Position numbers and translations under genes: made by a program | Shown: positions 36,693 to 39,362 of the stretch, in pieces | How the letters are laid out: the number at the start of each line of letters is the position of its first letter | How positions within the stretch are numbered: position 1 is the first letter of the stretch | The notes under the pieces: generated by a model | What the model was told of the DNA's origin: nothing | Seen by the model: the letters and a program-made list of their open reading frames with translations, nothing else | Databases searched by the model: none | Source: Escherichia phage CJY920 | DNA: 64,000 nucleotides | Sequence record: PQ349265.1 | Strand: one strand, 5' to 3'

Positions 36693-37721
36693 ATGTCATC
36701 AATACCTTGGATTGATAATGAGTTTGCATATCGTGCGCTAGCTCATTTACCTAAATTCGCACAAGTAAATAATAGTTCAACTTTTAAATTACGGTTTAGA
36801 TGTCCTGTTTGTGGAGATTCAAAAACCGACCAAAATAAAGCCCGTGGATGGTATTATGGTGATAATAATGAAGGAAATATTCATTGTTATAACTGTAACT
36901 ATCATGCACCAATCGGAATATATTTAAAGGAGTTTGAACCTGATTTATATCGTGAGTATATCTTTGAAATAAGAAAAGAAAAAGGTAAAAGTCGTCCAGT
37001 AGAAAAACCTAAAGAACTTCCTAAACAACCCGAGAAGAAAATAATTAAATCTCTTCCGTCATGCATTAGATTAGATAAACTGACGGAAGACCATCCAATT
37101 ATAAAATACGTAAAAGCTCGTTGTATTCCAAAGGATAAATGGAAATATCTTTGGTTTACAACCGAATGGCCTAAATTAGTTAATAGTATAGCACCAGGAA
37201 CATATAAAAAGGAAATACCTGAGCCTCGTCTTGTTATTCCAATTTATAATGCTAATGGAAAAGCTGAGTCTTTTCAAGGACGTGCATTAAAGAAAGATGC
37301 TCCTCAAAAATATATCACCATCAAAGCTTATCCTGAGGCAACAAAAATCTATGGAGTCGAACGGGTTAAAGATGGCGATGTATATGTTCTAGAAGGACCT
37401 ATAGATTCACTTTTTATTGAAAATGGTATAGCTATTACAGGTGGTCAATTAGACCTAGAAATTGTTCCATTTAAAGATAGACGCGTGTGGGTTTTAGATA
37501 ATGAACCTCGTCACCCTGACACTATTAAACGAATGACTAAATTAGTTGATGCAGGAGAAAGGGTTATGTTTTGGGACAAATCTCCCTGGAAATCAAAAGA
37601 TGTCAATGATATGATTAGAAAGGAAGGTGCAACCCCTGAACAAATTATGGAATATATGAAAAATAATATTGCCCAAGGGCTGATGGCTAAAATGCGGCTA
37701 TCTAAATATGCTAAGATTTAA
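36693..37721 (+). CDS. 61: DNA primase gp61
   Basis: 342 aa; zinc ribbon CPVCGDS...CYNCNYH; Toprim region. Confidence 0.9.
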   Translation: MSSIPWIDNEFAYRALAHLPKFAQVNNSSTFKLRFRCPVCGDSKTDQNKARGWYYGDNNEGNIHCYNCNYHAPIGIYLKEFEPDLYREYIFEIRKEKGKSRPVEKPKELPKQPEKKIIKSLPSCIRLDKLTEDHPIIKYVKARCIPKDKWKYLWFTTEWPKLVNSIAPGTYKKEIPEPRLVIPIYNANGKAESFQGRALKKDAPQKYITIKAYPEATKIYGVERVKDGDVYVLEGPIDSLFIENGIAITGGQLDLEIVPFKDRRVWVLDNEPRHPDTIKRMTKLVDAGERVMFWDKSPWKSKDVNDMIRKEGATPEQIMEYMKNNIAQGLMAKMRLSKYAKI

Positions 37722-37918
37722 ATTAACCCAACCAAAGCAAATGTTAAATCTACGAATGTATCAAGAGTAATTACTGGAATACTAACGCCATGAGCAATAG
37801 CAACTGGCGATAAAACAAAATTCCAAAGTAAAATTCCTATCATAGCAGAAATAGTAAAAGCTATACGTTTTTTATTACCTTTGATGGCATTAACAAGTGC
37901 CATTAATTTTTGTACCAT
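37718..37918 (-). CDS. small hydrophobic membrane protein, antisense to flanking genes (66 aa)
   Basis: minus-strand ATG at 37916-37918 preceded by GAGGAGGA SD (6-nt spacer); two hydrophobic segments; stop overlaps gene 61 stop convergently. Confidence 0.45.
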   Translation of the reverse strand: MVQKLMALVNAIKGNKKRIAFTISAMIGILLWNFVLSPVAIAHGVSIPVITLDTFVDLTFALVGLI

Positions 37919-37967
37919 GCGTCGTCCTCCTCTAAATTAAATATTTATCGCAAATTTTACAAAATTT

Positions 37968-37997
37968 GTTTACTTTCTCAGCTTGCTGTGGTATTAT
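37968..37997 (+). promoter_or_regulatory. early sigma70-type promoter
   Basis: GTTTAC -35, TGTGGTATTAT extended -10. Confidence 0.55.
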
Positions 37998-38022
37998 AAA
38001 ATAAACTGCTGAGGATAATATA

Positions 38023-38583
38023 ATGATTAATAAAATTGTACATGAAATGGCTTTAAACGGAGATTCATATAAAATATCTGCCGTAGTTGAAAATTTCATA
38101 CTTAATAAAGTAAAAGAATATTTCACTGATTGTTCAGTTAGTTATCAAGAAAAAATGGTTTTAACCGACGATACTGAAAAATCAAATAATTTGTTTTGTT
38201 CGAATTTTACCACTAAGAAGCGTACTAGACGGTTTGATATTGTTATTGCTCGTAATGGTAAAAAGCATATAATTGAAATCAAACACCAAGTTGGTGGAGG
38301 TACAGCTATTGATTCGGTTGGAATATATTTAGAAGATAAAGATAAATTAAAAGAATACACAAAAACTGAAAATCCTGTGTCATTGATGATATTAGATTTT
38401 TTGCCATGCGGATATTATCCGCGTAATAAGTGGACAAAAAGAGAATCATTTACTGATAATCCAACCATCCAAGCAAGGTTTAATGAATATGCTAAATCAC
38501 AAAACGTGTTAGTATTACTATCAAATACATATGATGAAGAATTATATAATTCGTTTTTTGCTGCAATAAATGAGAGAATATAA
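38023..38583 (+). CDS. hypothetical protein with possible PD-(D/E)xK motif, translationally coupled to dam
   Basis: 186 aa; [20 protein letters not shown] gives D-x12-ExK pattern (weak, motif-only); GAGGA SD; TAATG overlap with dam start. Confidence 0.55.
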
Positions 38584-39362
38584 TGCTAGGAGCTATTGCG
38601 TATACAGGTAATAAACAATCATTATTACCTGAACTTAAGTCTCACTTTCCAAAATATGACAGATTCGTGGATTTATTTTGCGGAGGTTTATCAGTATCTT
38701 TGAATGTCGATGGTCCTGTATTGGCTAATGATATTCAAGAACCAATTATTGAAATGTATAAACGTCTTATTAGCGTGTCATGGGATGACGTTTTAAAAGT
38801 AATAAAGCAATACAAATTATCAAAAACATCAAAAGAAGAGTTTTTGAAATTACGTGAAGATTATAATAAAACTAGAGATCCTCTTTTGCTTTATGTTCTT
38901 CATTTTCACGGGTTTAGTAATATGATTCGCATAAACGACAAAGGAAATTTTACTACTCCATTTGGAAAAAGAACCATAAACAAAAATAGTGAAAAACGCT
39001 TTAATCACTTTAAACAAAATTGTGATAAAATAATTTTTAGCTCATTGCATTTTAAAGATGTCAAAATTCTAGATGGCGATTTTGTATATGTGGATCCTCC
39101 GTATCTTATAACAGTCGCTGATTATAATAAATTTTGGTCAGAAGACGAAGAAAAAGACCTTTTAAATCTTTTAGACTCTTTAAATGACAGAGGAATAAAA
39201 TTTGGACTGTCGAATGTTTTAGAGCATCACGGAAAGGAAAACACTCTTCTTAAAGAATGGTCTAAAAAATATAATGTTAAGCATCTTAATAAAAAATATG
39301 TCTTTAACATATATCATTCCAAAGAAAAGAATGGAACTGATGAAGTATATATTTTTAATTAA
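38583..39362 (+). CDS. dam: DNA adenine methyltransferase Dam (GATC)
   Basis: 259 aa [25 protein letters not shown]...DPPY; matches remembered T4 Dam. Confidence 0.9.

Follow-up and report, generated by a model that had tools for sequence, protein, structure and literature searches.

In restriction-modification (R-M) systems of the DpnII/MboI type, the gene for a PD-(D/E)xK endonuclease adjoins that for a Dam-class GATC methylase, and CviAI/M.CviAI of chlorella virus PBCV-1 is the viral counterpart of these systems. The Dam of phages T4 and T2, whose GATC specificity is well established, is the textbook solitary phage methylase, and it is not known to serve a clear purpose for the phage. Here we describe the dam locus of Escherichia phage CJY920 (PQ349265.1) within a 64,000-nucleotide stretch of its genome, which we call the window. 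The window is a Tequatrovirus (T4-like) segment, reversed in orientation relative to the T4 reference record, and Escherichia phage LYE-01 is 99.7% identical to it over the region examined. In this phage, dam is preceded by a gene for a protein of 186 amino acids (aa) that resembles type II restriction endonucleases (REases) in its modelled fold, and we consider it probable (roughly 0.6) that the two genes form a type II R-M cassette in a virulent T4-like phage.

R-M pairs are themselves well known; what is new is a small, uncharacterised type II REase-like family paired with Dam. If our reading is correct, the purpose of Dam would be self-protection, which is directly testable in wild T4-like phages already held in many collections. 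It would also provide an instance of a virulent phage with hypermodified DNA that has an R-M system of its own, with a bearing on competition between phages.

Layout of the nuclease-dam locus

The features on which the argument depends are as follows.

36693-37721, + strand: gene 61 (primase)
37718-37918, - strand: gene for a 66-aa small hydrophobic protein (phrog_2024, E = 4.6e-30)
37933-39362, + strand: variable two-gene cassette (promoter, nuclease-like gene and dam), with bounds taken from the 'empty site' of T6
37942-37949, - strand: putative late-promoter box GATAAATA, one mismatch from TATAAATA (predicted function)
37955-38503: segment of about 549 bp deleted in T4, from the alignment of window and T4 and the list of T4 open reading frames (ORFs)
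37969-37997, + strand: candidate early-type promoter of the nuclease-dam operon, from a consensus scan (predicted function)
38023-38583, + strand: gene for the 186-aa PD-(D/E)xK type II restriction-endonuclease-like protein (phrog_8706, E = 6e-115)
38583-39362, + strand: dam, a D12-class N6-adenine DNA methyltransferase (PF02086, E = 1e-50; TIGR00571, E = 1.2e-69)

Gene 61 and dam are separated by 861 bp. An initial annotation of this interval had given the positions of its two ORFs, the Shine-Dalgarno (SD) sequence GAGGAGGA, an overlap of the type TAATG and a D-x12-ExK pattern, and all of these sequence details are correct. The TAA of the 186-aa ORF overlaps the ATG of dam (TAATG), and a GAGGA SD lies 8 nt 5' of the 186-aa ORF's own ATG at 38023. 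That both ORFs are genes is borne out by their PHROG families and by the ratio of nonsynonymous to synonymous substitution (dN/dS), which indicates purifying selection on the 186-aa gene (0.05 against EP01, 0.10 against T2 and 0.18 against MX01) and is 0.16 for the 66-aa gene against its T4 counterpart. An early promoter had also been proposed for the 186-aa ORF. A sequence of the sigma-70/T4 early type (TTTACT-17-TATTAT with an upstream TG) is indeed present at 37969-37997, within the segment deleted in T4, but such matches are no more numerous in the region than in shuffled sequence. A 64-aa minus-strand ORF at 37932-38126, which has no family and overlaps the promoter, was treated as spurious. 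An Rfam scan of 37400-39600 gave no match.

The 186-aa protein resembles type II restriction endonucleases

The 186-aa protein carries the motif D72-x12-E85-x-K87 (FDIVIA...IIEIK), for which a nuclease core had been suggested; profile and structure searches now support a PD-(D/E)xK REase-like fold. In the structural model, the protein is a single compact domain. Its core strands 2 and 3 bear D72 and E85-x-K87, respectively, and its first long helix bears E23; it has no methyl-reading domain such as the winged helix of DpnI. All full-length homologues, down to 30% identity, retain E23, D72, E85 and K87, and H88, Q89 and G93-TAIDS98 are likewise conserved in all of them. Judging from model and alignment, E23, D72, E85 and K87 are the putative catalytic residues. 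The structural matches are to type II enzymes of the MunI/EcoRI class, and MutH, Vsr and DpnI are absent from the top of the list. A structural search of BFVD returned the MX01 homologue and generic endonucleases, and nothing else.

Sequence profiles from two independent libraries cover the same core region. The Pfam family DpnII (PF04556), which comprises GATC enzymes, matches the 186-aa protein at E = 0.0025 and 4 of 10 members of that protein's family, the best at 8.3e-5; the PADLOC model REase_II matches it at E = 5.3e-5. Beyond these two, the protein matches no other named sequence family: NCBIfam gave chance matches only, and neither Pfam nor PHROG detected a GIY-YIG or HNH domain. In the record of phage Shinka (MZ502379), the gene is already named 'putative DpnII restriction endonuclease'; the remaining listed records call it hypothetical, apart from an evident mislabel, 'head outer capsid protein', in GADU22.

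The family is small. Among 1.84 billion representative sequences there were 11 matches at E<=0.001, several of them fragments or artefacts; a repeat protein (P0016) and two chimeric contigs (P0008 and P0010) were discarded as artefactual.

The nuclease-like gene is linked to a methylase gene at several genome positions

All contexts examined for the 186-aa family are T4-like phages or short contigs. In seven of seven, a D12-class methylase gene immediately follows the homologue, in most cases with an overlap, and the pair occupies three or more different genome positions:

Tequatrovirus: between gene 61 and gene 56
Dhakavirus MX01: same interval as in Tequatrovirus
Metagenomic T4-like phages L003-L007: homologue upstream of the methylase gene
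Klebsiella phage SmallBear: between denB and ndd
Contig L011: upstream of rIIA
Contig L012: homologue upstream of the methylase gene

The two proteins have diverged in parallel, with the nuclease-like one changing faster: identities to the window are 76, 72, 63, 61, 55 and 53% for the methylase and, in the same order, 63, 56, 48, 42, 33 and 30% for its partner. Between the window and MX01, the nuclease-like protein is as diverged as the primase (63% identity each), which fits vertical descent.

Using the nuclease-dam junction as a megablast probe, we found 180 dam-bearing Tequatrovirus records, 147 of them contiguous across the junction and 33 with the T4-type deletion, so that about 82% retain both genes. 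In the phage collection, Dam at >=90% identity occurs in 181 records and the nuclease gene at >=95% in 155; altogether, 450 records have Dam and 163 the nuclease gene. Genomes with the methylase only are common (T4 and hundreds of other T4-like phages), whereas the nuclease gene was never seen without a methylase in these database counts, which are not an exhaustive check of every record. This is the asymmetry that a toxin/antidote R-M pair predicts. Three features of type II R-M systems are thus present: a recognised nuclease fold with an intact catalytic motif, a separate methylase gene that is adjacent and co-inherited, and asymmetric loss. Given the fold and a linkage to Dam that extends beyond this window, an R-M-like module is the best reading.

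T4 has lost most of the nuclease gene

The interval between gene 61 and dam had at first been taken for an insertion relative to T4. Comparison across the T-even phages points the other way. The T4 interval, 309 bp long, contains a complete 66-aa ORF and the last ~80 nt of the 186-aa ORF, corresponding to 38504-38583 of the window. Because T4 keeps the 3' end of the gene, the difference reflects the deletion of an older gene in T4 and not an insertion in the window. The deletion, whose junction lies between TCGCAAA and TCACAAA (a short direct repeat), took the promoter and about 160 codons of the nuclease gene; in the junction search, T4-type records begin to match at query position 117, window position 38496. 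T4 Dam is thus solitary because of a deletion of about 549 bp.

The T2 copy is nearly full length (181 aa), and the gap of 846 bp between gene 61 and dam in T2 is 537 bp longer than that of T4. Miner and Hattman (1988) are said to have described a 536-bp insertion of unknown nature 5' of T2 dam relative to T4, in agreement with this difference. Near the end of the nuclease gene, a run of T residues (38561-38566) counts six in the window and five in T2 and T4. In the five-T allele the frame is shifted, the last residues are altered (...NSFLLQ*), and the stop codon is uncoupled from the start of dam by a 13-nt gap. Since T4 shares this frameshift with T2, the T4 deletion arose in a T2-type allele.

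In T6 neither the 186-aa gene nor dam is present, and the SD region of the 66-aa ORF joins directly to what lies beyond the dam stop codon in the window. This clean empty site defines the variable unit as the promoter, the 186-aa gene and dam together, rather than the 860 bp between gene 61 and dam.

The 66-aa gene belongs to the T-even backbone

The interval had been proposed to hold a module comprising the nuclease-like protein, Dam and an opposed membrane peptide. The pairing of nuclease and Dam is upheld by the fold and by the linkage in all contexts examined; the membrane peptide does not belong to it. A tblastn search recovered the 66-aa ORF from 692 phage records, in each case overlapping the 3' end of the primase gene, and in about 500 of these at >=80% identity. 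Its carriers include T4, T6, RB3 and Mosigvirus-type phages (~50% identity), and the T4 protein is 91% identical to that of the window. Because T4 and T6, which have no intact nuclease gene, are among the carriers, the 66-aa ORF is a real, conserved gene of the T-even backbone and not part of the nuclease-dam module. Next to the nuclease-methylase pair of SmallBear, the annotation shows no minus-strand ORF of this kind; contig L011 starts 140 nt upstream of its pair, and its upstream side cannot be judged.

The protein has one clear transmembrane segment (residues ~19-42; Kyte-Doolittle 19-residue maximum, 2.0), a basic N-terminus and a moderately hydrophobic C-terminus. Its gene meets gene 61 tail to tail, the two ends overlapping by 4 nt at their stop codons. 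The SD GAGGAGGA (37932-37925) stands 6 nt before its ATG, and the box GATAAATA, which T4 has conserved, is found 23 nt 5' of that ATG. No exact late-promoter box TATAAATA was found upstream of the ORF; GATAAATA, with its single mismatch, is a putative late promoter.

The T4 reference annotation misses this conserved gene: in NC_000866 it runs from 17738 to 17938 on the + strand of the record (3739-3939 of our extract L002), with its SD, unannotated and antisense to early genes. Most other records call it a hypothetical protein; the name 'putative head morphogenesis protein' in the T6 record is a mislabel.

Dam and the likely target sequence

The Dam of the window is 98% identical in amino-acid sequence to the T4 and T2 enzymes; the T4 record states GATC specificity, and PADLOC classes the window protein as an orphan methyltransferase (PDLC03722). 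As T2/T4 Dam methylates GATC, the nuclease probably cuts unmethylated GATC, and plain GATC is its likely, but not certain, site. The fold is uninformative here, since the MunI/EcoRI-class enzymes that it matches differ in their recognition sequences.

The composition of the window was considered as a further signature of the cassette and rejected. GATC is the most depleted of all 256 tetranucleotides in the window, with 72 occurrences observed and 212 expected (ratio of observed to expected, O/E, 0.34). T6 carries neither dam nor the nuclease gene and is equally depleted (O/E 0.33 in NC_054907, 18001-68000; L022), so the depletion is lineage-wide and not tied to carrying the cassette.

A possible mechanism and what weighs against it

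In the R-M cassette that we propose, the 186-aa protein would be a small, Mg2+-dependent PD-(D/E)xK endonuclease of the EcoRI/MunI structural class, whose members are usually homodimers that leave 4-nt 5' overhangs. Unmethylated GATC would be its most likely target. One early promoter would drive both genes, and the translation of dam would be coupled to that of the nuclease gene, so that the antidote accompanies the nuclease. The phage genome presumably enters the cell Dam-methylated and with glucosylated hydroxymethylcytosine (glucosyl-hmC), which would make the nuclease-first gene order harmless. The nuclease would then cut DNA unmethylated at GATC in the infected cell, most plausibly that of co-infecting phages or other foreign DNA; enterobacterial hosts are Dam+, and host DNA would be excluded as a target because it is already methylated. 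The nuclease gene is easily lost, leaving a solitary Dam as in T4.

Several observations weigh against this reading. The DpnII match scores 17.6 bits against a gathering cut-off of 23, and so falls below the threshold for family membership; it aligns residues 28-111 with profile positions 152-233 of 278, and the 186-aa protein is some 100 residues shorter than DpnII. Against the sequences of solved structures, neither the protein itself nor a profile gave a meaningful match, to a REase or otherwise. A profile search of the 1.84 billion representatives and a word-indexed search with a wider alignment returned nothing beyond the small phage family and yielded no bridge to DpnII or to a bacterial REase, and the searchable literature yielded no enzymology and nothing on the 186-aa protein. 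The closest plasmid relatives of Dam (~40% identity), from the Firmicutes Lactococcus, Enterococcus, Staphylococcus and Weissella, belong as methylases to type IIS R-M systems of the AlwI and FokI types. At the six plasmid loci that we examined (L016-L021), four of the systems are of AlwI type and one of FokI type, and one has no annotated endonuclease; a walk from these relatives toward DpnII-family sequences found none at the six loci. As such partners recognise GGATC and similar sites, a Dam-family partner alone does not fix plain GATC as the target. The nuclease gene has also been lost or damaged repeatedly: KarlGJung has an internal deletion, G29 and ESCO58 carry frameshifts, T2 has its C-terminal frameshift and T4-type records have their deletion. 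This shows that it is dispensable under many conditions. Finally, with Dam+ hosts and with glucosyl-hmC probably shielding phage DNA, a selective benefit is hard to see.

It is tempting to speculate that the T-even Dam is the antidote of a phage-borne GATC restriction weapon used between phages. The nuclease would in that case tolerate hmC or glucosyl-hmC and cut unmethylated GATC in co-infecting relatives that lack dam, as well as other phages. Its targets would be T6-type relatives, roughly two thirds of Tequatrovirus records, with exclusion or gene conversion as the outcome, and the nuclease would contribute to the group-wide depletion of GATC (O/E 0.33-0.34). We regard this extension as doubtful.

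Alternative explanations

The cassette could instead spread as a selfish, homing-type element, the nuclease cutting a particular site in cassette-less relatives (T6-type genomes or alleles without dam) during co-infection and recombinational repair copying both genes in, as for the Seg and Mob endonucleases of T-even phages, with Dam serving for self-immunity only. Such behaviour would suit a cassette that is present or absent between conserved Tequatrovirus genes (present in ~180 of ~500 records), leaves a clean empty site in T6, is found in T4-like phages at no fewer than three genome positions and has a homing endonuclease in the next intergenic slot of the window. We nevertheless think it unlikely: the fold is REase-like, with no GIY-YIG or HNH motif, and the divergence between Tequatrovirus and Dhakavirus, equal to that of the essential primase (63% in both cases), speaks for vertical descent rather than recent invasion. 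This explanation also overlaps with an R-M cassette, because R-M pairs are themselves selfish, and differs from it mainly in the target. A different relation to methylation, whether degradation of Dam-methylated, cytosine-containing host DNA directed by methyl groups or by the discrimination of cytosines, with the hmC DNA of the phage spared, or strand-specific, MutH-like nicking at hemimethylated GATC in the course of phage replication or repair, is in our judgement quite unlikely. It would accommodate a host that is already methylated at GATC and so offers few unmethylated targets, and no tetranucleotide in these genomes is more strongly depleted than GATC. T-even phages are moreover known to possess cytosine-specific nucleases (denA, denB), and the SmallBear pair adjoins denB and ndd. 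The model, however, contains no methyl-reading domain, MutH, Vsr and DpnI are not its top structural matches, and the asymmetry of loss would be expected if methylation protects against the nuclease rather than being required by it.

If the nuclease gene were instead a dead or decaying R-M relic, kept because its reading frame carries the promoter and the translational coupling for dam, its frequent loss and damage, its dispensability in T4 (where Dam is still made) and the weak similarity to known REases would follow easily. Strong purifying selection over the whole protein (dN/dS 0.05-0.18) and the retention of the putative catalytic residues at 30-60% identity would be unexpected for a mere leader, and we consider a relic very unlikely. 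The least probable of the explanations, which we hold to be highly improbable, joins membrane peptide, nuclease and Dam in one toxin-antitoxin or anti-defence unit. The three lie side by side in the window, and a strong SD precedes the small ORF. Records with this ORF, however, number 692 and those with the nuclease gene 163; T4 and T6 carry the ORF but not the nuclease, and it has no annotated equivalent beside the SmallBear pair.

Neighbouring features

Downstream of dam, the window continues with three genes on the same strand.

39424-39939, + strand: gene 56
39914-40765, + strand: 283-aa homing endonuclease (phrog_655, E = 9e-34; weaker match to an HNH-endonuclease PHROG)
40800-41036, + strand: soc

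The homing endonuclease gene sits between gene 56 and soc, with its first 26 nt inside the 3' end of gene 56. In T4 the same slot holds segF, an unrelated GIY-YIG gene, and in EP01 and MX01 it holds other small ORFs or nothing. Two exact TATAAATA late-promoter boxes lie just upstream of soc (40729-40736 and 40761-40768, + strand); the whole 64-kb window contains three, fewer than shuffled sequence. At the other end of the locus, a terminator-like hairpin with a T-run (37881-37906, + strand), ~160 nt 3' of the gene 61 stop codon, may end the gene 61 transcript; it falls within the 5' part of the minus-strand 66-aa ORF.

Comparison with known systems

Among described systems, the DpnII/MboI type is the closest in arrangement, with a PD-(D/E)xK endonuclease gene next to a Dam-class GATC methylase gene. 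The present protein is smaller than DpnII (186 against ~280 aa), lacks the N-terminal half of that enzyme and scores below its family threshold. The cassette differs further in placing the nuclease gene first, in its translational coupling and in its carrier, a glucosyl-hmC phage of Dam+ hosts. To type IIP enzymes of the MunI/EcoRI class, the 186-aa protein shows 12% sequence identity only, with no detectable sequence homology. The free-standing homing endonucleases of T-even phages (Seg and Mob) resemble the cassette in being present or absent between conserved genes and in their possible selfish spread, but they have another fold and motif; the nuclease described here has a methylase as its partner in every case, and the way it has diverged is consistent with vertical descent. 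Like CviAI, the pair would be an R-M system carried by a lytic virus. The methylase itself is nearly identical (98%) to the solitary Dam of T4, yet it is not solitary in this phage or in ~82% of the Tequatrovirus records that bear dam.

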